From positions 5,714 through 69,713 of IMG/VR virus record IMGVR_UViG_3300045974_000067: a DNA stretch of 64,000 nucleotides; one strand, given 5' to 3'. Position numbers and translations under genes: made by a program. The notes beneath the pieces are model-generated. The model was given only the letters and a program-made list of their open reading frames with translations. It was not told the DNA's origin and did not search any database. Numbering within the stretch: the first letter of the stretch is position 1; each line of letters starts with the position of its first letter. This document shows positions 7,617 to 54,089 of this stretch, one piece after another. The stretch is from a virus.

Positions 7617-9878
7617 TCATGAAAAAGCATATTCAGAATCAAGTACTAATGTAATATCTAAAGTACCTAATTCTATTCCACTTATATCAGCCTCTATATC
7701 TTTAACAATACTAGATAAAGGGTCTGATTGATATAGTTCTACAAATGTTTCTCTAATCACTCTAAATAGTTTAGGCATGTCAGCTAGTAAACAACCAAAT
7801 GAATCATGCACAGTAGTAATAGGAAAATCAGACCTATTAACAGCTAACATTAAATGTGCTGCATCAAGACTGTGTATAGCATTAGGACTAGCACCTTGGC
7901 TTTGTTTATTTTTACTTGGTTTACTATTCTCAATAAAGCATATAGCTAATTGTATTGTATTAGTATAATATCCAGTACTATTCCTTTCACCAGCAGGAGG
8001 TCCATATTGAATCCAAATCTTTTTAATGACACCTTCTGTATAATGCTGTACTACTGGAAAGTTAGTAATAGGCACATGCCAAGATAGAAACTTATTATTC
8101 TCTTCAGCTTTCTTACCAGCATTCTCAAACACTGATAATAATTGCATTGGACGCTTTAGCGAGAACTTACAATCCTCATATACTAATTTACCTAAATAAG
8201 CACCCCAACGATGTTCCATTGAGAATAGCTGCTCTATGCCATGTTTCCTAGAGTCATCTATAATTTGCTGTCCACAACCAAAAGCTGTAGAGCCATATGA
8301 TAATGTCATTACATTTCGTTTTGATATTTTTCTTCTATCTCTGGACTCTTTAATTCTATGCCAATATACACATGAGCATATTGTCATTAATAAATCATTA
8401 TCATTTTTGAATTTAATAATATTCTTAATAAGTTCTTTTCTACGATCTGATTTTAGTGGTGCTTCAGAGATTTGATGTTTAAGATCAGCTAATGTATCTA
8501 TTAGATTTTCACAGTCTTTTAAAGTTTCTTTATCTAATTGATCAACATCAAAATCAATAGCTTTCCAGACATGTTCAGCCACATACAAATAAAGATCACC
8601 AGGAGAATCTAACGGTACAAGATTAACGTATGGTGCTGTTATTTCATCTCTAGTTAATGCTGCTAAGTGTTGTTGTCCATTAGTAGAACCATCAACATAG
8701 GCTTCTAAATGTGATTCATACTCATACGGATCAATTACACCTGAGATAATATGTTCAGCATTCTGATACTGCCAGTATCTAAACTTAGATAATTCAACGC
8801 ATGCTGCTAAGAATTGCCAAGGTTTGTCTGCCTTCATCCATCCCTGATTTACTTTAGGACTCTCAGCATAACTTATTAATATCTCTTCATTATCTAGGCT
8901 CCAAAGCACTCTATCAGATAACGGTATTTTATCAGTCTTAACTCCTTCAATATTAGAATTACCAGCCCAATTAGATGCAATAGAAATTAATAGCCAATCA
9001 AAGCCTTCTTTAGTAATTGGTTTAGAATCAGCTCTAAGTAGTAATCCCTTGGCTAGGTCTGAGCCTTGATTATGTAAGTATGCTGTAGCTGGATATACTC
9101 TTGCACGAAAGTCTAGTGTGTATAAGTGATAGAAAGTTTTACCAATAAATCTTTTAGCAATATCTCCTATAGCTTTTGCTTCACGTATCTTCGATTGTTT
9201 TGCTTCAGGATTGTGCATTTCCCATATATCAGCAAATGCATCAGTCTTATTCCTTAACGCCCAAGCATAAATAGGATAGATTTCTTCATTAATAGTCCAG
9301 CCAACTTTCTGTAATTTATTAAGTGTATTGAATACTAAAGGATGAGTCTCAGGAGTGAGCTCTTTAAGAACATCTCTATCAGCAGTCTTTACCATCATTA
9401 CGCCTGTTTCATGCCTAGTAGTAATCCAAGGTGCGTAAGGAAATAGTGATGGTAACTTTTCAGTCTTGTCTAAACTTAGAGAATCCCATAGTGTACTGAT
9501 CTTATCTTCATTAAGAACCTCTATGACATAGGTTGCATGTCCATTTCCAGCTCTACCAAGAAGTACTTTAATTAGGTCTATTTCTTCAAATGAGTATAGG
9601 AGAAATGCACCAGCTTTAGCAGCCAGCGCACTATCTCTTTTCATCTTATTTTTATTACGAATATTATGTCCAATAGCGCTTATAACTTCTGTCATTAATA
9701 CAGTCTTACGGGCCACACTACGACCTACCCTTGTGTATAAGTAGAGTACTGAGATAGTGTGGTCTACTAGGTCTTCTGGATCTAAATCCTTTAAAAACTT
9801 AACAGGATTTTGGTGTGAGATCTCAAACTTTAACCTATTGTTTATTGAAGCAACTAATTTTTGTTTCGTTGGCTCCAT
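7617..9878 (-). CDS. Single-subunit (T7/T3-type) DNA-directed RNA polymerase, stand-alone copy, 753 aa
   Basis: DFRARVY, KPWQFLAAC, motif A DGSTNGQQH, DLY..VA, motif B RK.SKRNVMTLSYG, PNAIHSLDAAH, motif C VHDSF. Confidence 0.95.
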   Translation of the reverse strand: MEPTKQKLVASINNRLKFEISHQNPVKFLKDLDPEDLVDHTISVLYLYTRVGRSVARKTVLMTEVISAIGHNIRNKNKMKRDSALAAKAGAFLLYSFEEIDLIKVLLGRAGNGHATYVIEVLNEDKISTLWDSLSLDKTEKLPSLFPYAPWITTRHETGVMMVKTADRDVLKELTPETHPLVFNTLNKLQKVGWTINEEIYPIYAWALRNKTDAFADIWEMHNPEAKQSKIREAKAIGDIAKRFIGKTFYHLYTLDFRARVYPATAYLHNQGSDLAKGLLLRADSKPITKEGFDWLLISIASNWAGNSNIEGVKTDKIPLSDRVLWSLDNEEILISYAESPKVNQGWMKADKPWQFLAACVELSKFRYWQYQNAEHIISGVIDPYEYESHLEAYVDGSTNGQQHLAALTRDEITAPYVNLVPLDSPGDLYLYVAEHVWKAIDFDVDQLDKETLKDCENLIDTLADLKHQISEAPLKSDRRKELIKNIIKFKNDNDLLMTICSCVYWHRIKESRDRRKISKRNVMTLSYGSTAFGCGQQIIDDSRKHGIEQLFSMEHRWGAYLGKLVYEDCKFSLKRPMQLLSVFENAGKKAEENNKFLSWHVPITNFPVVQHYTEGVIKKIWIQYGPPAGERNSTGYYTNTIQLAICFIENSKPSKNKQSQGASPNAIHSLDAAHLMLAVNRSDFPITTVHDSFGCLLADMPKLFRVIRETFVELYQSDPLSSIVKDIEADISGIELGTLDITLVLDSEYAFS

Positions 9879-12686: not shown

Positions 12687-13058
12687 TTAATGAGTACCAT
12701 AATTATATCCTATACTTTGCCCGTAGTTCGGCCCCGATGTCCCTGCTGCTGCGCTGGCGTCAGTTTGAACGCGGAACAGAATGGCGAATCTGCCATTCAA
12801 CTTCCAACCGATCCCCGTTTGAAATAGGTACTGGTTGGTAAAACGGAGGTGGAAGAACACCCCGAATGGGAATGCCACTCGGATGAAGAAAAGTGCGTTG
12901 TAGAACAGGCTCTTGTTCTCCGTGATCCGTGGTGTGAAGTTCCATTTATCCTTTTCCTTGAATATCCAAGCGATACCAATAGACTTGATGCTGTCGGTGT
13001 CGAGCAGCAACGGCCACTTGTTGAGGGGCGATGCCGGATCGCCTTCGATATTAAGCAT
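12687..13058 (-). CDS. Tail fibre-associated protein
   Basis: Coupled to fibre stop (TGATG); shares the fibre tip's higher GC. Confidence 0.55.
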   Translation of the reverse strand: MLNIEGDPASPLNKWPLLLDTDSIKSIGIAWIFKEKDKWNFTPRITENKSLFYNALFFIRVAFPFGVFFHLRFTNQYLFQTGIGWKLNGRFAILFRVQTDASAAAGTSGPNYGQSIGYNYGTH

Positions 13059-16000
13059 CAGGCGGTCACCGCTTTGATGACGGCGAAGTTGATTATCACT
13101 GCTTCGGATAGCGACCCGGCAGTCACATTTTCAAGCTCAAAAATGATTAGTCCAGCAGCCCATACCAAAGCTCTAAGCCGATAACTAGCGCCATTTGCCA
13201 TGCCTACCCCAGTAATGTTGCAAACAAAGCAATCCGTTGCAGCTACAGTGCTGTTGTTAAACGAAAATTGGACATTGGTAGTTGCCGCCAGCGCAGCGTT
13301 ATTCATCACAATCTGCCCATTGGTCTTGTTCAGCGTCACTGCGGTACTCTTACTCGTCGCCTGCGTGACCGTACCACCACTGCCGGTGCCGTAGCCGAGT
13401 CCTCCGGTGCTGACGTTGAGGATATTGCCGCTGGCATCTACACGGAGTCGTTCAGTACCATTTGTCCCGATATAGGCGTTTTTTGAATCAGTAGTGGTTA
13501 TCTTCAGCACACCACCAGCACTAATAATTCCACCTTCTCCAGCAGCGGTTGCAGTGCTGGTCTTCTGTAAGCGAATCGACCCGGCATTAGAGGTTACATA
13601 CAGGTCCGTTTCTGCTGTGGCTCCAGCGTTGGTGTTGCTGACTTCCAGCTTTAGAAGCCCGTTGACACTGGTGGATTGCGTGATATTCCCACTGGAGTCG
13701 ATACGCATGCGTTCGATTGGCGCTATGTTTGCTCCGCTAGTCAGGAACAATAAATTACCAGTCGGATACTGCGCATTCGTTCTCGCACCATTAACCGCTT
13801 GAATCATGGCGCTGGTGAAATAGTTGGCATTTGCCCCAGTGATCGCAGCGAAGTTGAGAGAGGTAAGGTTGTTGGTTGTAGTGTCAGTGTTTACAAGAGT
13901 AAGCCCCGCCGTTCCAGTACCAACGGCGGTTGCCGTTGAACTACCTGCTATCGTATGTCTAGCTGATGCTGTTTGGTCATAGGTTGAAGCTCCAGCAGTC
14001 GATACATTCAAATATCCACTCGCATCCAGCGTCATCGCCTGCGTAAATGTGATCGGGTTGCCTGCGGTGCCGCTGGGAGCGGTGTACCAAGTGTGACCCG
14101 TGCCAATCTCGTATTTATTAGCAGCCGCGCCGACGATGTATGTGTCTGCTGTGCCGTTGTAGTAGGTATTGTTTCCGAGTGAGAGTCCGATTGCATTGCT
14201 ACCCTCTATGGAATTTGAACCGGGTAGTTGAATTGCTTTTCTATTTGCTCCACTCCAAGCCGAAGGCACAACCCCCAAGCCAAGGTTGCCGGAGGAGTCT
14301 AGCGTCATCGCCTGAGTGAAAGTGATCGGGTTGCCTGCGGTGCCGGAGGGTGCGTTGTACCAAGTGTGAGCGCCTGCGTTTTGGTTGTAATAACTTGCGG
14401 CGTTTGTGGACTTATATGTATATGCAGACCCATTCCAATAGCTATTAAGCCCAATCTGCATTTGAGTACTGTAGGAACATACAAAGCCAAGAGTGCCACA
14501 ATCCATTACTTTGAATCCTGAACCCCATGCACTCGGCGTCACCCCAAGGCCGAGGTTGCCGGAGGCGTCGAGGGTGGCAACTGTTATGTTATTGGTTCTG
14601 AATAATATGGGTTTGTTTGCATACGCCGCCACATAGACATTCGTAGCGTCTGCGCTAAAGTACGCTTGCATTGCATTTCCTATGTTCACTTCATAGGCAG
14701 CATTCCCCGATGCGGTATTAAGTGAGTAGGCGCAGTTCCAAGCACCGACGTTTAATGTGGTAGTTCCATTTCCTGCACTCCCCGTCGCACTCAACGTCCC
14801 CGTGACGGCGAGGCCGGTGGAGGTTATATTGGCGATATTAGTTCCACCAATATAATTCTGAATTGCAGTTCCGTGATAAATCTGGAAATTTGGCGCATTG
14901 CCTGTTAGCTGCGAAGTTCCCCCAATAGTTACTATCCCACTCGCACTCAGCGCCCCGGTGACGGCGAGGCCGGTGGAGGAGACTGTTGTAACTTTTGACC
15001 CGTTAATGTAGGTATCAAGAGGAAAATTGTTGTTGCTTGAAACGTAGGTATTCCCGCTTCCCAATAATCCAAGTTCTGCCGTATTTTGTGTCTGGACTAC
15101 CTTGAAGTAGCTTTGGTTATTTGCTCCGTTAGCAATAACGACTGAGCCAAGACTGTTTGTAGCCGTCACCGTAGTAAAACTCCCCGTCCCGGTGACGGCG
15201 AGACCGGTGGAGGTCGTGTCAGTAACCGTTGTCGAACCAATGCGACCAAGAATATGGCCCCCATAAGTGCCACTTGTACTTCCACCTACAATAATATTGC
15301 CGCCATCGGTCACGGTATTCCCGCCGCCGAGAACCATTGACCCGCCCGTTGCGGTATTTAACAAGGCTCCCTGCGTAGCGGAAGATACATAGTTTCCCGT
15401 CGCACTCAGCGTCCCCGTTACCGCCACCCCCGTACTCGTCACATCGGTGACTGTGGTGCTATTTATCGCTTGAATAACGTGTTGGCCAGTCGGAGCATTA
15501 GTGGTATGATTCGTGGCAGCAGGAGCTGTAACCGTCGTGATTGTCTGTGTACCAGTAAAAGTATTTGCCGCATCTGTTCTAGCTATAGTTGCGTTAGTTG
15601 TTGGGAAAGTCATTGTAGTACTGTCAGTACCAGCCAGAGTCATAGAATTACTAATAGTTAATGACTTACCACTTGCAGCCTTGGCAGAACTATAATCCTT
15701 TTCCCAGGTACCTGCAGCACTACCAATATTAGTACATGTAGCAAGTATATCACAGCCAGGTGCAATAGTCCAGAATGCTCCACCCCCGTTTGCTTGAACA
15801 ACTATTGCTTGAGTTGAATCATTATCAATTTCAAACTTCCAACCTACTTTAAGTGTTGTAGCATTAGGTAATACAACAGTCTGACCTTGAGTACCTGTAA
15901 AGATAGTATAGTAAGGTGTAGTATTAGTGAATGTAGTAGTACTACCAGCAGTAGCAATACTCTGCATACCTAAACTTAAAGTATTAGCAATTAGGCTATC

Positions 16001-16363
16001 AGTCCAACTAGCGCTTGTGCCATTAGTAGTTAGAAGTTTATTTGCATTACTTGTTTGACTAGGCAAAGTAACAGGAGGATCTTGCCAAGTAGGTGCGCCA
16101 CTACCATTAGCAGTAAGTAATTGTCCAGCAGTGTTAGATCTAGTAATTGTATAGACTACACCACTAATAAGCTCAATAATCCCACTCGCTGCAGATCTCT
16201 TTAATATTTTACCAGTAGTACTCGAAAACAATGGTAATTCAGAATCTACAGATACACTCGCAGTACTCTCAAGTTTATCTGAGTTTAAGTTATTAAAATT
16301 AGCATCAACTTCATTGTTAGTTAAAGGAGAACCTTTACCTGCACGAGTAACAATAGTAGACAT
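13058..16363 (-). CDS. Long tail fibre / receptor-binding protein, mosaic
   Basis: N-terminal TRAGKGSPLTNNEVDANF anchor; G/T/S-rich repeats (STGLAVTG, TLD.SGNLGLGV.PSAW, ERMRIDSSGN); C-terminal GGTVTQATSKSTAVTLNK...LSEAVIINFAVIK tip. Confidence 0.88.
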   Translation of the reverse strand: MSTIVTRAGKGSPLTNNEVDANFNNLNSDKLESTASVSVDSELPLFSSTTGKILKRSAASGIIELISGVVYTITRSNTAGQLLTANGSGAPTWQDPPVTLPSQTSNANKLLTTNGTSASWTDSLIANTLSLGMQSIATAGSTTTFTNTTPYYTIFTGTQGQTVVLPNATTLKVGWKFEIDNDSTQAIVVQANGGGAFWTIAPGCDILATCTNIGSAAGTWEKDYSSAKAASGKSLTISNSMTLAGTDSTTMTFPTTNATIARTDAANTFTGTQTITTVTAPAATNHTTNAPTGQHVIQAINSTTVTDVTSTGVAVTGTLSATGNYVSSATQGALLNTATGGSMVLGGGNTVTDGGNIIVGGSTSGTYGGHILGRIGSTTVTDTTSTGLAVTGTGSFTTVTATNSLGSVVIANGANNQSYFKVVQTQNTAELGLLGSGNTYVSSNNNFPLDTYINGSKVTTVSSTGLAVTGALSASGIVTIGGTSQLTGNAPNFQIYHGTAIQNYIGGTNIANITSTGLAVTGTLSATGSAGNGTTTLNVGAWNCAYSLNTASGNAAYEVNIGNAMQAYFSADATNVYVAAYANKPILFRTNNITVATLDASGNLGLGVTPSAWGSGFKVMDCGTLGFVCSYSTQMQIGLNSYWNGSAYTYKSTNAASYYNQNAGAHTWYNAPSGTAGNPITFTQAMTLDSSGNLGLGVVPSAWSGANRKAIQLPGSNSIEGSNAIGLSLGNNTYYNGTADTYIVGAAANKYEIGTGHTWYTAPSGTAGNPITFTQAMTLDASGYLNVSTAGASTYDQTASARHTIAGSSTATAVGTGTAGLTLVNTDTTTNNLTSLNFAAITGANANYFTSAMIQAVNGARTNAQYPTGNLLFLTSGANIAPIERMRIDSSGNITQSTSVNGLLKLEVSNTNAGATAETDLYVTSNAGSIRLQKTSTATAAGEGGIISAGGVLKITTTDSKNAYIGTNGTERLRVDASGNILNVSTGGLGYGTGSGGTVTQATSKSTAVTLNKTNGQIVMNNAALAATTNVQFSFNNSTVAATDCFVCNITGVGMANGASYRLRALVWAAGLIIFELENVTAGSLSEAVIINFAVIKAVTA
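14023..15438 (-). repeat. Internal DNA-level repeat cassettes in tail fibre
   Basis: ~70-bp duplicate near 14030-14095 and 14300-14368 (HTWY.APSGTAGNPITFTQAMTLD); four STG(L/V)AVTG cassettes near 14780, 14940, 15182, 15396. Confidence 0.8.
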
Positions 16364-37660: not shown

Positions 37661-39035
37661 TTATCCTATACCATAAAAGTAACGATTATCTTTAAAGTTC
37701 TCTTGAACTGTTGCAAGAATATCGCTCTTTGTTAGTATATCTTCCTTAGTAAGTATTTTACCACCTACTCTTGACCTTCCAGCCACAGGTATCAGGCCAA
37801 TATCAATTGCTTCATTTAAGTATTTATCATAAAGGTCTCTTGGGAAACCTCTTGCTAACATCTCATCTAAAGTCGACTTGATAGAGTCCTTTTCTACAGC
37901 ATTGGCATAGATGATCCTTAAAGCTTTTCGTGCATCTAGCATATCAGCTGCATTTGTAAAGAATGCGTCATGTATCGTCGAAGTTTGTATATTACTTTTC
38001 TTACCCCATAAATGAAATTGTTTAACAAGAGTGGCATCATTAGAGTGATTACCATTAACACCAAAAGCTGTACGTGCTCTTGTAGCATCAGCAATGTCAT
38101 TTATTTTACCAGGTTTATTTCTAAACTCTTCCCACCAATTAGGTTCAGTTCTTTGTGGTATTTGAAGTATGTTATTTACCCAATTACCATTAGCATCTTT
38201 ATAAGCTAATTTTTCTTCAAAGTTTTGAGTATAATTTTGTTCTAATATTTTGCCATCAAAATTAACCCATGGAATATTAGACCAATTCTTATCTAATTTA
38301 TTAGGATAGCCAACTTCGAAACCTTTAGTAATATCCTCAGAAAACAAAGAATAATTACCTATCTTAAATCCTGTTCTACGTCTTGTTGGTGTTTTAACAC
38401 CTGTAATTAATTCAGATGTAAAACTACCAGGCACATAACCAGGAATACGATTTAAAAGTTTCTCACGCAGCGCTTCATCTTTAATACCCATGATATTATT
38501 AAGCCATGTAGGTAATTTAACACCTTTCTTATAGCTACTTAATAAACTCTGCTTTAATATTGATTGAATATCAAAAGCACTTTGTGAAGGTTTAGAATTT
38601 ATTAAAAAGTCTTGTGCTAATCTACCAAAATACTTAGTAAAATCTTTTAAAATAGGAGTAGATGACTCTAAATTTTCGCTCATTATATTAGCTATTAATT
38701 TAAAGTCTTCAGGTGTTACTATTTTATTATAAGCTCTACTAAGTTTATCTACATAGTCTTTAGTCTTACTATCTAGGAAATATAATTGATCTATTAACTC
38801 AGCACCAGGATCTAATCCTTTGTTAAAGACGTCTTTAATATCTTGTCTAAGTGCTTTTAATTCATTATAAGTCTCAGGATCAAAACTTTCATAGCGTGCC
38901 ATACGAGCGCTAATCTCACTTAATACAGCATCTCGCTCAGCAGCTTTAACAACAAGTGTTTCAGATTCTTTTCCTAATACCTTAGATAGTTTAGCTTCAA
39001 CACTGAAGATACCAGTGCGTTCACCTGCACCATAC
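37661..39035 (-). CDS. MuF-RNA polymerase fusion, exon 2 (YGAG..., NGNHSNDA, motif C IHDAF)
   Basis: Continues motif B after intron removal; carries second catalytic Asp. Confidence 0.9.
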
Positions 39036-39329
39036 CGATTTGTTAAACAGAATTCGTTAGATTCTGTCAATTTACTACAAAGCAAATATAGTTCATTTAA
39101 GTTTCCTATATTTGCTTTGTATAAATTCTGCATATTCCTATGCAGTCCAGACTATATCATCATCCCTAAGGATGTCGGGCGCTTCCACTGGACTCCCAGT
39201 GTACTCCTTTCGGATAGTCGTTGCACCTTACTGTTTTCACAGTCTTGGCTCAGGATTGACCGTTCTGGTTTTTCCCTGAGTTCACCCGATTGTCATTTAG
39301 ACATTACTGTCTAAAGCCTCTAATAAATA
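39036..39329 (-). ncRNA. Group I self-splicing intron, ORF-less, 294 nt
   Basis: P1: exon CCUU pairs with IGS GAGG (U-G at splice site); P7 AACGACUAU (39214-39222); S element GAUGAUAUAGUCUGG; P9 hairpins; terminal G; removal restores KQQNMVTL-YGAG in frame. Boundary could shift by 1 nt (Phe instead of Leu). Confidence 0.9.
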
Positions 39330-42300
39330 AAGGTCACCATGTTCTGCTGTTTGGCAGCTTTACGTAAATCTTTCTCAGTAAGTCCTAACTTTTGATTTAA
39401 TTTAATAAATCTAGGATCATTAAAAGTAGCATTAGCAATTTCATCGTATAGACGCTTCTTTTGGTCAGTAGGTACTACATTACTTAGGCTAGCTAACTGC
39501 TTATTTTTAGTAGTTAAAGCAATAATCTGTGCGCCACTACTAGAAGCATCTTGCTCAAGAGCAATATTAATACGATAGTTAGCAAGTCTACCCAGGCTTG
39601 CGGCACTGTAATCCCCTCCTAAGAATTCGTCTATTTTAGCTGTTTCTAATGCAAGTCTTAATAACTTTCCTTGTTCTTCTCCATCAATTTGTGCAAGAAG
39701 CTTATTCTCCAAGATAAATCGTATATCATTAGGTTTAGCTCTACGAATAGCATTACCAATAGCAATAAGATCTTTACGATGATCCATTGCTATTTGTTGT
39801 CTACCTAGAATAGATAATGAATTATGGCTACCTTCTAAAGCATCAGATAGTCCACCTATAAATCCACCTATTTGGTCTTGTAGATTATAAAAACCTAATT
39901 CACTAAAAGGCTTAGCTTGTGCAGTATTAAGAAATGGTCTGAATGTTTCACCTGATTGTGGCCCTATAAAGCCACGCTCGTATATACGGCCACGATGATC
40001 AATAAAAGGAGTATTACTAAATGACATATCTTTTTCACGTAGCCAGGACATAGCCTTAAGACGTTCATATGCATCTCCTCTTTCAACCATGTATTGTCTG
40101 TATATATTTAGATCATTATAATATTGTGCTTTACCTTTATCATCTTGAAAAGTAATTAATTTATTTATAAAGTCATGAAATTCAGGATCTACTTTATATT
40201 GTGCTTGTGAAGCCCAATTAAGAGCATCAGTCATATTCTTGTCGATAAGTTCTACAGGTAAGTCATTAAAGCTAGAAGTTGAAGTAATAGGTATACGAGT
40301 GTCTGTAAGTCCAAATATACCATCATCTATAAAATATGTCTTATAGCCTTCTTTAACTAATAATCTATTCTTATCTGTAGTAACACCTACACGTAAGCCT
40401 ACTTCTACTTTCCGTGTGAGTCTTGCATAATTTTGTATTCTAGGATCAGTTATCCTAAGATTAACACTAAAAGTATCATAGTAAGGGCCGAAGTATTGTC
40501 CACTCATACGACTCTTCATACGTCTTTTCTGTACACCAAAAGTCTCTAGCTCATAGAAACCTTTGTCTTTAGCATCATCTAACAACTTGACACCTAAAGT
40601 ATACCATTCATTCCTACTACCTCGATAGTTAGCAAGATTATATAAGTCACGTCCTAATGCTACAGCAAGTTGATCTCTATCAGGACTATCTGCTAATGAG
40701 AGTCTCTTAGCAAACTTTAAATAAAAATCTTTTAGATTCTGGTCTGTGAGTCTTATCTTTAATTTAACGGGTATCTTGTAATCTAAAATATTACGAAGCT
40801 GATTAGCTATTTTAGGTAAAGTTTTATCTTCCCATTTGTTTACAGCTTTAATATTAGCAATAAATGTATCATGTAGTTCTTGTAATTGTACAGGTCCAAG
40901 AACAGGATCAATATAATTAGCTTGTTTTAATTTAAATAGTAGATTAGCATCTTTACGTAACTGTGTTTCCATATAATCTGAAACATTCATTACATCAAAC
41001 TTAATCTGACCATTTAAAACAGCTTTTAAATTAGTCCATGCTTCATCATTTTCTCTAAATCTTCCAAATGTTATTCTTAAGTTATCTGCTATAGCAGCTC
41101 TTTCATTAATACTCATTGTATCTGCTAAGTCATTTACAAACTTAGTAATAAATTCTTTATCTTTTTGTTTAAGAACTATACTCTCATTAACTAATCTAAG
41201 ATTATTATTAAGTACACTAGGATTAGGTGCAAACATCCTAGTATCTTCATAACGACTAGTAATAGGATTGAACTTTAAGTTAGCTTCAGTAGGTGGTGTA
41301 TTTAGCACACGCGTCTTAGCAGCTTTCTTAGTACCTATTAAATTACCACGATAGTTTGTTAATGATAAAGTACCATCAAGTTCTTGTGTTTGCAATAAGT
41401 AGTATTGTTTAAGAGCAGCAGTCATTTCTGCATCACCAATAATTTCATCTGGTCTAGCAGCACCTAACTTAAGTGTATCTAACTTATCTTTAGCAAAAGC
41501 AAATCTACGAGTATCACCAGGTAAACTACCAAAGTCACTAGTAGTCATTTGATTAAGTTGTTTAATTCCTACATTAGCACCTGATGGTGTTATAAATTTA
41601 TCTAGTTGTAATTGACCACTTTGAAATTTCTGTAATCTATTAAGATCGCCAATATGCTTTATTTGTACTTCTTGTGGTTGTCTAAGTAGCCAGTCATTAT
41701 AGCTTTCTTTTAATGGTGATTGTCCATCATAAAAGGCTATTTCTTTATCAGTAAGTCCTGCAAGATTCCTTTTGCGTATCTGAGCAATACCTTCATTAGT
41801 ACCTAATTGATCATAGGACTTAGTAATAGGTATAGTTGTAGAACGGCAATACCAATGAGCAGGTGGCAAGTGTGCAGTATCTCCGACAGGATAAATATGT
41901 CCATCTCTGCTTGCACATAATGGTGTTGTACGAGAGTCTAATACTGCTACATATTGATAGCCATTTAAAATTTTTTCATTAGCTTTATAAACTTGATGAT
42001 CTGCTTGAGCATATACTGAAGTCATAGATGTTACAGTTAAACCATTAGCTTGATTTTTAGTAATATTAAAAGTACTCGATACAGTTTTAGCAATAGAAGT
42101 CTCATTGAGACCATCTGCAATACCTTTACGTATAATAGCTTCAATACGTATTCTTTCATTCTTGCCTATACCTACCCAACCTTCTTGCAATACTACATTA
42201 TTATATAAAGGTTGCTTAAGTACTACATTCTCTGCAATGCTTCTTGGAGGTTGCTTAGTACGCCAAATATTACCAACAGCTTTATCAATATTGTTAGTTG

Positions 42301-42571
42301 TGAAAGACACTTGATCTTTAAATAAATCTAATAAAGATCTCGAATGCACATTATACGTATTACTAATTGTCTTTTCTATTTCAGTATTTAACTTAACTTT
42401 AAATTGATCAAAAGTATCACCTTGTAGCTTAGATGAACGGATTAATCCATCTACTCTAACAGCATGACCATCAATAATTAACTCTAACTTGCCTTTTGTA
42501 TTGTCAGTATAGAGTCTAATCATTGCTGCTCTATCTACAGCTTTATCATAAATTTGTGTGTTGGCATTCAT
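39330..42571 (-). CDS. MuF (SPP1 gp7-like head morphogenesis)-T7-type RNA polymerase fusion, exon 1; spliced product 1538 aa
   Basis: N-terminal MuF motifs YVAVLDSRTTPLCASRDG..Y, PPAHWYCRST, SYNDWLLRQ; polymerase motifs IDHRGRIY, EQDASSSGAQ, LYDEIA, RKAAKQQNMVT. Confidence 0.9.
40753..40771 (-). promoter_or_regulatory. Class A promoter-like motif inside the MuF-RNAP gene
   Basis: TTATCTTTAATTTAACGGG, one mismatch to TTATCATTAATTTAACGGG. Confidence 0.5.
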
Positions 42572-51932: not shown

Positions 51933-51961
51933 AATAGTCTCCGTAATAGTTTAGTATTTCG

Positions 51962-51982
51962 TATAAGATACTCTTATTTGCG
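51962..51982 (-). promoter_or_regulatory. Putative phage RNAP promoter, class B
   Basis: TATAAGATACTCTTATTTGCG, 1 mismatch to the 11613 copy. Confidence 0.8.
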
Positions 51983-52113
51983 CTATTGTCCAAGCACACG
52001 AACACAGTAAAAGAAACTGTTAGTTTGTCTACATTCAGTCCAAAGAGAATACTCAAAATAAACTACTAACCCTATTGCAAATAAAATAATAGTTACAGGT
52101 AGTATATAGTCTT

Positions 52114-52392
52114 TCATTTAACAACTTTCAAATGAGCCTCTTTGACAAGCTTAACAGAGTCAGTTGCTTCAATGAAGTATGTAGAACCAGTACGCATATT
52201 AACAATTAATGGTTTTCCAGCATTAAGACTATCTGATACAGTCTTTGAATTAAGGAGAAAATTAGCAGCTTTAACTCGCATATAAATATCACCATCATTA
52301 CGTCGAGTAAATATTTGCATTGTTTGTAAATCGCTTGCATTAATTCTTCCATCATCTACATCTTTACTGGTTTCAATTATTAATATGCTCAT
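52114..52392 (-). CDS. Hypothetical protein
   Basis: ORF track; AAGGA RBS. Confidence 0.65.
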   Translation of the reverse strand: MSILIIETSKDVDDGRINASDLQTMQIFTRRNDGDIYMRVKAANFLLNSKTVSDSLNAGKPLIVNMRTGSTYFIEATDSVKLVKEAHLKVVK

Positions 52393-52410
52393 GATTATTT
52401 ATCCTTTAAA

Positions 52411-52605
52411 TTACTTATCCCAGTTAATGTCAGGTTTAATATTAGGTATATTACGAACTTCCATAAACTCTTTTATAGCTTCTACAAGAGGTGCAGCATT
52501 ATGCTTATGTGACAATACTAATTTTCTCTTACGTGTAGTTAAGAATGCAGCAAAGTCATAGATTGCACCTAATGCTATTTGATAATCCTCTACTTTAGCT
52601 CTCAT
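52411..52605 (-). CDS. Hypothetical protein
   Basis: ORF track. Confidence 0.6.
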   Translation of the reverse strand: MRAKVEDYQIALGAIYDFAAFLTTRKRKLVLSHKHNAAPLVEAIKEFMEVRNIPNIKPDINWDK

Positions 52606-52892
52606 ACTTTTACTGCCTTAATGTGTCTAGTTTGAATTTCATGTTGAAAACTTTCCCAATCATTTCTATCTTCATAACTCCCAACAAGTAGTAAACGAAT
52701 ACCTGTTACACCTTTTAATTGGTATGGATAGTTTACAATTATTGTTTGTGCTCTTGATAATTCTCGAGATCGCATATATTCATAAGCTTCTTCATAATTT
52801 CCGCCTAATATGTAATTCATTTCTTCCTCATTTGAGTAATTAAATATACTTTTTAAAGTATACTTATTGCAATTTAATTTAATTAAATACAC
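52602..52892 (-). CDS. Hypothetical protein (start uncertain, possibly 52821)
   Basis: ORF track; internal GAGG RBS before MNYIL. Confidence 0.55.
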   Translation of the reverse strand: MYLIKLNCNKYTLKSIFNYSNEEEMNYILGGNYEEAYEYMRSRELSRAQTIIVNYPYQLKGVTGIRLLLVGSYEDRNDWESFQHEIQTRHIKAVKV

Positions 52893-52916
52893 TCCTCTTG
52901 AATGTACTTAATTAAT

Positions 52917-53053
52917 AACCCTACTCATAGAGTAGGGCTAGTAATCCGTGCCTCTTTTGAAAGTCTAAGCAATTGTGCGCACAATCGGTTAGGCTGTTTA
53001 AGGCCATCACGGTAGCCTTATTGGGTGGGCGGGTAGTTTACTAGCGCGAACGC
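52917..53053 (-). ncRNA. Candidate small pseudoknotted RNA with own promoter and 3' hairpin
   Basis: Starts at predicted +1 G of class B motif; GCG-UUCG-CGC hairpin; closing stem GCUAGUAA/UUACUAGC; loop CCGUG complementary to CACGG; 3' hairpin AGCCCUACUC/GAGUAGGGUU. Confidence 0.6.
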
Positions 53054-53054
53054 T

Positions 53055-53075
53055 TATAAGATACCCCGTTTAAAA
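53055..53075 (-). promoter_or_regulatory. Class B promoter, degenerate copy
   Basis: TATAAGATACCC core intact, distal half divergent. Confidence 0.55.
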
Positions 53076-53273
53076 TAAGCTTCTTAGGCTTTATTCCCAA
53101 AATCGTGTACGTTTATATAGATACTATATAGGCCGAGGAGTTAGCCATACCTATGGGCAGAAACGTACAAACCCTGATGAACCTCTAATAGTCTTTGATA
53201 ATAGAATTCGGTAATAGTATAGTAGAGCCATGCTCACTATAATAGAGGACAGGAGCATAGCTCGACTGTTCTA

Positions 53274-53834
53274 TTAAGCGGCCTTTGGTTCTGCAGCTGC
53301 CTTGTTTGCAGCACGTTCAGCTTGATACTTGGCAAGTGCTTCTGCCGCCTTCGGATTAACAGCACGCTTCTCGATACCAGCATTATAAGCAGCAAGAATA
53401 GCTTCTTGATTCTTAATAATCCATTTAGCTGCATTGTCATCGGCAAGCTTTGCCAGTGCTGCTTGAGTGGCTGCGGTCTTTTCTTCTTCAGTCATACGCT
53501 TAACACTAGGCCAACGGAATGAATCCATAATGGCTTGATGATTATCTTGCACAAACTTAAAGTTAATATCAGTGGATGCAACAATAGCGTCCAGAGCCTT
53601 TTGCAACTTCTTACGATCAGCTTTAGTAACACGAGCAACTACGCCAGCTTCAAATGCCTTGCAAATCTCATCCTCGTTCTCATACAAGAATTGTGCAAGG
53701 TTTGCATCACCACCAGAAATCTTACGCAAGGCAGCTTCAATTTGCGGCTTACGAAGATAGTCCCTAGCTTCAGCAGCAGTACGGAACACGGAACCATCCG
53801 GGGTAATAAAGCCAGATTGAATAACATTTGCCAT
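53274..53834 (-). CDS. Probably highly expressed conserved phage protein, function unknown
   Basis: F.TPDG.VF.T..EA.DY N-terminus; biased codons; preceded by both class A and class B motifs. Confidence 0.75.
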   Translation of the reverse strand: MANVIQSGFITPDGSVFRTAAEARDYLRKPQIEAALRKISGGDANLAQFLYENEDEICKAFEAGVVARVTKADRKKLQKALDAIVASTDINFKFVQDNHQAIMDSFRWPSVKRMTEEEKTAATQAALAKLADDNAAKWIIKNQEAILAAYNAGIEKRAVNPKAAEALAKYQAERAANKAAAEPKAA

Positions 53835-53879: not shown

Positions 53880-53900
53880 TATAAGATACCCTTATTTACG
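53880..53900 (-). promoter_or_regulatory. Putative phage RNAP promoter, class B
   Basis: TATAAGATACCCTTATTTACG; predicted +1 G (53878) opens hairpin GGAAUACA-AUGA-UGUAUUCC. Confidence 0.8.
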
Positions 53901-53957
53901 CAAAGGGATTTCGCAAGGTCTTCTTGGCTGACCTTGATAGCCTACTAACCAACGTGA

Positions 53958-53975
53958 TATCATTAATTTAACGGG
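53958..53975 (-). promoter_or_regulatory. Putative phage RNAP promoter, class A
   Basis: TATCATTAATTTAACGGG exact copy. Confidence 0.75.
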
Positions 53976-54089
53976 CTAGCCGACCTGCCAGGTTGCCATA
54001 TAGCGCAACGAAACAGGCCGACTGACACGCCACCCTAGACCAACCTACGGCCTCACAGCAGCCAAACGGCGACTACTGTGGCTAATCAA

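Follow-up and report, generated by a model that had tools for sequence, protein, structure and literature searches.

A pseudoknot-containing RNA domain next to a terminator-like hairpin, conserved downstream of a 186-aa protein gene in a group of uncultured phages

The window analyzed here, that is, the whole stretch of 64,000 nt, comprises bases 5714 to 69713 of a 69,713-nt virus record (IMG/VR record IMGVR_UViG_3300045974_000067) that is rated complete. The genome has a GC content of ~35%, carries every long open reading frame (ORF) on the minus strand, and encodes a T7-type single-subunit RNA polymerase (7617 to 9878, minus strand; Pfam RNA_pol, E = 9e-66), a family-A DNA polymerase, a large terminase, and a Mu-F-like large protein whose gene is split by a group I intron. 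Among cultured phages, the roseophages DSS3_PM1 and DSS3_VP1 come nearest, with identities of 34% for the polymerase and 53% for the terminase. The intron (39128 to 39339, minus strand; Rfam, 95.8 bits) lies between an ORF with the Mu-F-like N terminus (39320 to 42571) and an ORF with a weak RNA_pol match (37661 to 39133), and the two may be parts of a single split gene that encodes a polymerase-like protein associated with the virion. Elsewhere on the minus strand, a 1101-aa ORF with no Pfam match (13058 to 16363) has a local GC content of 46 to 48%, compared with 35% for the genome, and this region may have been acquired by transfer.

The RNA of interest sits in a 453-nt ORF-free gap (52821 to 53273) that separates a gene for a 186-aa protein (53274 to 53834, minus strand) from the next gene, which has its ATG at 52820. 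The 186-aa gene is conserved, with at least 119 homologs; among the matches listed, one is a 99% copy and all others have ≤65% identity. Its product had no significant match in Pfam or PHROGs, and an AF2 model of the protein (pLDDT, 84.6) had no match in the PDB at E ≤0.001, the best E value being 0.72. A tblastx search of the gap for a decayed gene found nothing. The gap folds better than shuffled versions of itself (z, −6.35; 0 of 100 shuffles as good), and the folded RNA region has a GC content of 0.50 against a genome mean of ~0.36, which corresponds to the 95th percentile of the genome.

Five exact copies of the 11-nt sequence GGTATCTTATA occur in this phage, all on the minus strand, compared with a mean of 0.1 and a maximum of 2 in 300 shuffles. 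Four of them precede genes and are accompanied by the upstream sequence GCAAATAAG, in full in three cases and with one difference in the fourth, and the contiguous motif of ~20 nt would most simply be the promoter of the T7-type polymerase that the genome encodes. A full-consensus copy lies before the 186-aa gene (53880 to 53890, minus strand) and is found in the same place in L052, L053, L056, L054, L120, and L126; indeed, a full promoter 5′ of this gene is kept in every relative where sequence is available. This copy is the likely source of transcripts running into the pseudoknot domain described below. The remaining copy lies within the gap (53055 to 53065, minus strand; predicted start at 53054 or 53053), where the initial annotation had placed the promoter core of a small RNA gene. 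It is an exact copy of the repeated motif on the coding strand, identical to the others, and it lacks the upstream consensus GCAAATAAG. A term search of the Naomiviridae paper (PMC8323127) found no mention of such promoters, intergenic RNAs, or origins.

A second ORF-free stretch (53892 to 54089, minus strand; GC content, ~0.45) lies immediately 5′ of the full promoter that precedes the 186-aa gene. Its predicted fold (−73.3 kcal/mol) has a z score of −3.08 and was equaled by 1 of 200 shuffles; it had no match in Rfam and, outside the promoter region, no blastn similarity in the relatives. A AAATTAATGATA(T) motif common to this phage and three relatives lies ~70 to 230 nt 5′ of the conserved promoter (~53955 to 53967 in the window, minus strand; ~2331 to 2345 in L052; ~2321 to 2335 in L053; ~2191 to 2205 in L056) and may represent a promoter of another type or a site recognized by a protein.

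We numbered the putative RNA from the G at 53053 (index 1) along the minus strand. All of the helices previously named are present and made up of standard pairs, and the MFE fold contains every one of them. A 5′ leader (53021 to 53053) with a UAGUAAAC motif and a C-rich stretch would begin the putative separate RNA. An 8-bp closing stem, P1, pairs index 9 to 16 with 110 to 117 (53045 to 53038 with 52944 to 52937). Within it lie hairpin P2 (52999 to 53020), with 8 bp (index 34 to 41 with 48 to 55) and the 6-nt loop CCGUGA, and hairpin P3 (52965 to 52992), in which index 62 to 65 and 67 to 73 pair with 78 to 84 and 86 to 89 around a 1×1 internal loop beneath a GCGC loop. Five bases of the P2 loop (53012 to 53008; index 42 to 46) are complementary to the strand CACGG at 52946 to 52950 (index 104 to 108), with which they can form five Watson-Crick pairs. 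The A-rich linker AAAAGA (52953 to 52958) stands between P3 and this pseudoknot 3′ strand, and the 6-nt A/U spacer AUUACU (52940 to 52945) separates the pseudoknot from a terminator-like 3′ hairpin of 10 bp with a UAU loop (52917 to 52939; index 115 to 124 with 128 to 137) and a U/A-rich tail (52905 to 52916).

The closing stem shares two bases with the GCG-UUCG-CGC mini-hairpin that opens the putative transcript and three (AGC) with the 3′ hairpin, so that all of the helices cannot form simultaneously at full length. The earlier statement that the locus lacks a ribosome-binding site with an ATG holds in substance, because the AUG at index 47 to 49 opens a 28-codon frame that has no Shine-Dalgarno sequence. 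The 137-nt fold has a z score of −2.54 (3 of 200 shuffles as good) and the fold of the opposite strand one of −3.0. Shuffling yields a pseudoknot in 2.4% of trials when the RNA's own loop and tail are considered and in 17% when any loop and any single strand are allowed, and a closing stem of at least 8 bp arises in 0.34%. These single-sequence chance levels are modest; the case that the structure is more than chance rests on comparison with relatives.

Between the 3′ hairpin and the next gene lies a 96-nt stretch of 20% GC (52821 to 52916, minus strand) in which the MFE fold places two A/U-rich hairpins, of 16 bp and 11 bp, and which also has UUAAAUUAAAUU-type repeats. Further upstream in the gap, CUCCUC(CC) loops resembling anti-Shine-Dalgarno sequences appear by eye to be exposed on hairpins (53131 to 53146, minus strand), and the central hairpins of the 3′ untranslated region (3′UTR) elements of L052, L053, L056, and L126 also appear by eye to have such loops; these might base-pair to a ribosome-binding site, perhaps the one on the very mRNA that carries them.

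The initial annotation could assign the RNA to no family by eye, and a cmscan-type comparison agrees, since no Rfam family matches. At the gathering thresholds of Rfam 15, the matches in the whole window are limited to a group I intron and a tRNA, neither of which lies in this region, and ARAGORN, applied to the window for tRNAs and tmRNAs, reports only a tRNA-Leu at 1394 to 1479. Relaxing the threshold to E ≤10 for the region gave RsaF as the best match, at 21.6 bits versus the 60 needed, and eight homolog loci had 0 Rfam matches at E ≤1. The suggestions of a ribozyme, a pRNA-like element, or a decoy gained nothing from these comparisons: self-cleaving ribozymes and phi29-type pRNA are without an Rfam match in the region, even at E ≤10, and nothing found points to any of the three.

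Direct searches with the sequence of the region recovered little beyond the phage itself. By blastn against 50,697 phage records, the region had no match; blastn and nhmmer searches with the 453-nt gap against 61 IMG/VR loci gave nothing meaningful; and a single-sequence covariance model of the annotated structure (R1) returned its self-match alone in 66 sources and nothing in five whole related records. In public collections, a gapped junction pattern had 0 matches and the sole match to a 3′-end pattern was L053's own contig. We rejected the 26 loci that matched a 16-mer from P2 in public collections as chance occurrences, together with three matches to a 5′-motif pattern in genomes, where no homolog adjoins; the ten matches to the latter pattern in viral contigs were two known members and eight chance matches in coding regions.

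Relatives were instead reached through the upstream gene. Alignments of homologs of the 186-aa protein led us to 61 IMG/VR loci and 80 metagenome loci, with some contigs in both sets. The stretch 3′ of the gene varies among them, and many relatives (e.g., G001 and L051) have a plain terminator there; in G001 (69,732 nt; 45% identity in the neighboring gene), the gap is merely 60 nt long. One subgroup has a noncoding element of 250 to 300 nt after the gene, which in L053, L056, and L052 can be aligned by blastn at ~62 to 63% identity. Reading these elements alongside the gap of the present phage revealed a common 3′ architecture, in which a hairpin with a 5- to 8-nt loop is followed by a second hairpin, an AAAGA-like linker, the complement of the first loop, an A/U spacer of 6 to 9 nt, and, last, a GCCCU...AGGGC hairpin whose tail is U-rich.

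RNAalifold applied to five relatives (alignment A9) produced a consensus with P2, P3, and the terminator. From these five sequences, with the present phage left out, we built a covariance model (R2) and searched 397,108 bases. R2 finds the held-out L144 (E = 4.8e-6) and a new member, L122 (E = 8.6e-7), in which the domain begins right at the stop codon. In the present phage, R2 gives a full-length match at 52912 to 53026 on the minus strand (28.8 bits), which we take as the extent of the conserved domain, with an E value of only ~0.001 and under a rough calibration. The model also gives a partial match in L128, and its next matches in the window have E values of ≥0.67. The domain is thus common to eight distinct sequences, this phage and seven uncultured relatives (L052, L053, L056, L120, L125, L144, and L122), and it lies 3′ of the 186-aa gene in 8/8 members. 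A crude scan for the architecture (hairpin, loop complement, and terminator) marked 10 of 142 sequences on the gene strand versus 6 of 142 on the opposite strand; six of the ten gene-strand matches are family members, all directly 3′ of the gene. The first ORF downstream of the domain is not conserved among members, so the domain's link is to the upstream gene and the terminator.

Other features of the same intergenic slot were noted along the way. A strongly conserved, RNA-like 5′ motif, GGAACCACU ... CCUGUGUCAUCC, forming a hairpin with internal loops, directly follows the stop codon of the 186-aa homolog in nine distinct relatives (L052, 3092 to 3150; L053, 3092 to 3190; L056, 3077 to 3160; L120, 730 to 803; L125, 769 to 852; L126, 746 to 842; L144, 522 to 604; L054, 3087 to 3131; L139, 2136 to 2186). 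Some relatives have it together with the pseudoknot domain and others have it alone, so it is a separate module; nhmmer does not detect it in this phage, and the idea that the phage's first 60 nt after the stop codon correspond to it was not borne out. The relatives also have, 5′ of the domain, a hairpin with a CUCCUC-type loop and a UAGAAAAC motif where this phage has UAGUAAAC; by eye, motifs of the UAGAAAAC/UAGUAAAC type precede the domain or terminator in L052, L053, L056, L054, L126, and L144. More distant relatives have a tRNA gene 230 to 300 nt after the 186-aa gene (Met in L063, 3296 to 3372; Thr in L067, 3297 to 3370; Ser in L068, 3339 to 3426; Thr in L073, 3297 to 3370), and downstream tRNAs are present in 8 of 60 loci scanned. 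The slot after the 186-aa gene is a hotspot for small RNA genes in this phage group. In the equivalent gap of L058, L062, L063, and L071, GTCTTTAAA(C)-type motifs are repeated, up to five times in L071, and are probably the promoters of those phages' own polymerases; short ORF-free units with a strong terminator at their end come after such motifs in L058, L062, and L068.

For covariation, pairs were counted by script on hand-set coordinates in seven sequences (this phage, L052, L053, L056, L120, L125, and L144), because the MAFFT alignments (A6 and A7) failed to bring the pseudoknot strands into register. The six loop-proximal pairs of P2 are standard in 42 of 42 cells, with two to four pair types per position, and the second pair of P2 retains in five of the seven sequences a U·G wobble that is compatible with the gene strand only. 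At the position of P3, a hairpin of variable length and sequence occurs in 7/7 folded sequences and in L122. The five-pair core of the pseudoknot is standard in 34 of 35 cells, compared with 8 to 14 of 35 when the partner is slid by 1 to 3 nt, and four of its five positions show two or three pair types.

As the pseudoknot coordinates had been chosen by complementarity, we allowed for that choice with a permutation test, comparing each loop with the 25 nt before each terminator by the longest Watson-Crick run. The mean run was 5.14 for a loop and its own partner versus 3.10 for foreign partners, and the observed total of complementarity was reached by 2 of 5040 partner permutations and by 0 of 2000 shuffles; with L122 added as the eighth member of the covariation set, it was reached by 22 of 40320 permutations. 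One mismatch each occurs in the pseudoknots of L122 and L056. Loss of the pseudoknot in relatives had been named beforehand as an outcome that would count against the structure; the comparison instead indicates that an H-type pseudoknot between the P2 loop and the downstream strand is kept through compensatory changes. The closing stem fares differently as an enclosing element, for it is specific to this phage: the mean run is 4.86 with the sequence's own partner and 4.40 across partners, and no relative has more than 6 bp. An AAAGA-like stretch lies 5′ of the pseudoknot 3′ strand in this phage, L052, L053, L120, L125, L144, and L122. No conserved single-stranded seed is apparent among the members, whose loops and linkers vary except for the AAAGA stretch and the UUAAU-like spacer, and 10 of 155 alignment columns are invariant.

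The distance from the pseudoknot to the terminator hairpin is 6 to 9 nt in all members, and the spacer is mostly UUAAU-like in the relatives. The G+C-rich hairpin of this phage (52917 to 52939) is homologous to the GCCCU...AGGGC hairpins of the relatives. Its own tail, AUUAAUUA, is U-poor and was missed by a simple terminator scan, so termination here is an assumption; the relatives have four or five U residues at this point. The next promoter-like copy downstream of the hairpin is at 51962, which means that the hairpin must be read through for three genes, and with no promoter copy of their own near the downstream genes, the hairpin is probably leaky. As in 3′UTR-derived RNAs, a terminator is shared with the upstream mRNA in 8/8 members, as judged by position.

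The four sequencing runs that contain this stretch are all DNA. The contigs assembled from two of them (X2, covering 52766 to 53136, and X3, covering 52967 to 53154) have zero substitutions in 52917 to 53053 and hence give no covariation information. Both contigs carry an A-to-G change on the plus strand (T to C on the minus strand) at 53058, inside the promoter core, and are identical across the domain; this substitution argues against a strongly constrained promoter. Elsewhere, the X2 contig shows high microdiversity at 51952 to 52437 (17 differences in 486 nt), compared with 0 to 1 difference per 270 to 370 nt in the flanking segments, the RNA among them. In front of the domain, the promoter core is found in 0/7 relatives at up to two mismatches, and the description of the locus as a self-contained gene does not extend to any of these 7/7 relatives: without the core, the domain there closes the upstream gene's transcription unit at its 3′ end. 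In this phage, the copy at 53055 to 53065 together with the closing stem may yield a separate RNA of ~137 nt. That the internal promoter and closing stem are both private to this phage would fit a domain that has recently been made separately transcribable.

We therefore favor, at a probability of roughly 0.6, the reading that 52912 to 53026 on the minus strand is a conserved, previously undescribed structured RNA domain whose shape lets it work in cis together with the terminator or the 3′ end. The structure, conservation, and position of the domain are shown, and the cis-acting role is inferred. In its general form, the domain appears from the relatives to be the 3′-terminal part of the upstream gene's transcript, fused 6 to 9 nt before the terminator. 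The P2 loop would pair with a strand ~55 nt downstream to give an H-type pseudoknot into which P3 and the A-rich linker are inserted, and the A/U spacer, of a fixed length of 6 to 9 nt, would then lead to a hairpin resembling an intrinsic terminator. Across the phage group, the domain would form the 3′ end of the transcription unit of the 186-aa gene. In this phage only, a promoter core stands 33 nt upstream, and an 8-bp stem would tie a new 5′ end to the spacer, so that the domain can probably also be made as a separate ~137-nt RNA. Possible effects of the domain are control of termination efficiency, protection or insulation of the 3′ end, and the persistence of a stable 3′ fragment.

We favor such a structural role at the terminator or 3′ end over base-pairing or ligand sensing. 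Sequence changes freely in the loop, in the pseudoknot strands, and in P3, but the fold and the 6- to 9-nt distance are kept, which points to a shape-dependent role rather than to a regulator that pairs through a seed, and the differences in the first downstream ORFs between members argue against control of one particular gene. The small number of invariant bases and the lack of conservation of the closing stem, as a pairing that overlaps the base of the terminator, argue against a riboswitch, though not decisively. A bolder form of the cis-acting reading, which we consider unlikely, holds that the domain is the cis RNA partner of a T7-type polymerase terminator, folding at a fixed 6 to 9 nt from the terminator hairpin, setting the balance of stop and read-through, and leaving a stable, pseudoknot-capped 3′ fragment that this phage began to make from its own promoter. 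If true, such a terminator partner would define a class of RNA elements new among those associated with terminators.

The strongest competitor, which strikes us as possible if somewhat improbable, is a self-contained ncRNA gene of ~137 nt that extends from its own promoter at 53055 to 53065 to the 3′ hairpin, with a trans-acting role such as that of a decoy or regulator. An exact copy of the 11-nt core does stand directly upstream, but this copy lacks the upstream consensus of the others, is missing in 7/7 domain-carrying relatives, and is substituted within the core in the X2 and X3 contigs, which are identical across the domain. The phage-specific 8-bp stem, which joins transcript bases 9 to 16 to the 3′ region and is expected by chance in 0.34% of shuffles, and the hairpin at the end of the domain both suit a discrete transcript, and short promoter-to-terminator units are reported to make small RNAs in other phages (PMC11512511). 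Against a trans-acting RNA stands the absence of a conserved single-stranded seed, the loops and pseudoknot strands being different between members.

A riboswitch-like or protein-dependent attenuator, in which folding of the pseudoknot decides between stopping and read-through into the downstream small genes, is in our view quite improbable. Small pseudoknot aptamers resemble the arrangement of a pseudoknot and A-rich linker next to a terminator, and here these elements stand at a fixed 6 to 9 nt before the terminator, with three genes in need of read-through before the next promoter-like copy at 51962. Such an attenuator is at odds with the empty Rfam comparison at E ≤1 for the eight homolog loci and this phage's region, with the few invariant bases (10 of 155 alignment columns), and with the differences in downstream genes between members. 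The only pairing that overlaps the base of the terminator is the closing stem, which is not conserved, and the 5′ strand of P2 pairs well by eye with the 5′ strand of the terminator in L052 only.

That the locus has no RNA function, being a chance fold or acting as DNA, for example, as a T7-style replication origin of promoter plus AT-rich stretch, we regard as extremely unlikely: modest fold scores that are alike on both strands (z, −2.5 and −3.0) and the adjoining 96-nt stretch of 20% GC (52821 to 52916) would suit it, but compensatory changes in P2 and the pseudoknot across seven to eight sequences, a strand-specific U·G wobble that is kept, recognition of the site by a model built from relatives, and the lack of both the promoter and a comparable AT-rich stretch at this place in the relatives all speak against it.

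Structured RNAs of phages are poorly cataloged, and most candidates cannot be checked for want of relatives that carry them. The element described here has a pseudoknot supported by covariation, its architecture is defined, its position with respect to the terminator is constant, and it is absent from Rfam; it is a new RNA motif for widespread uncultured phages of freshwater type related to the Naomiviridae roseophages. The presence of the polymerase gene in the same genome makes the motif amenable to bench testing. The locus also illustrates how a separate small RNA gene might arise, once a 3′-terminal domain of an mRNA has acquired a promoter.

Phages that encode T7-type polymerases are known to have leaky intrinsic terminators within operons, such as T7 T-phi, which follows the capsid gene. 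Like them, the element described here has a G+C-rich hairpin with a U/A-rich tail after a conserved gene, and the genes downstream need read-through; unlike them, it has a conserved pseudoknot domain (P2, P3, linker, and pseudoknot helix) 6 to 9 nt before the hairpin, and we know of no pseudoknot-domain companion of leaky T7-type phage terminators. The preQ1-I and SAM-II/V aptamers are small H-type pseudoknots that lie beside terminators. The domain shares with these aptamers the pairing of a hairpin loop to a downstream strand, the A-rich linker, and an adjoining terminator-like hairpin; it differs in the inserted P3 and in having no conserved pocket bases, no conserved pairing that overlaps the terminator base, and no Rfam match, and whereas the aptamers lead a gene, the domain follows one. 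It may also bear a resemblance to nuclease-resistant pseudoknots.

Among RNAs derived from 3′UTRs, the bacterial small RNAs (sRNAs) MicL, GlnZ, and UhpU are reported to share the mRNA terminator and to arise by processing or, in some cases, from an internal promoter. The likeness lies in sharing a terminator with the mRNA and in a promoter copy that would here allow an internal start, and the difference lies in their use of conserved single-stranded seeds, often with Hfq, where the present element has a conserved pseudoknot fold and no seed. In phage 201phi2-1, ONT-cappable-seq identified 11 sRNAs, 3 of them intergenic and 8 formed by premature termination in 5′UTRs (PMC11512511). The RNA considered here would similarly be a short ORF-less unit from promoter to terminator, provided that this phage's promoter works; the 201phi2-1 sRNAs were mapped from RNA and lie mostly in 5′UTRs (PMC11512511), whereas the present structure comes from structural comparison and is 3′-terminal in the relatives. 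By analogy with these systems, the domain appears most like a terminator-associated 3′UTR element or a 3′UTR-derived small RNA.
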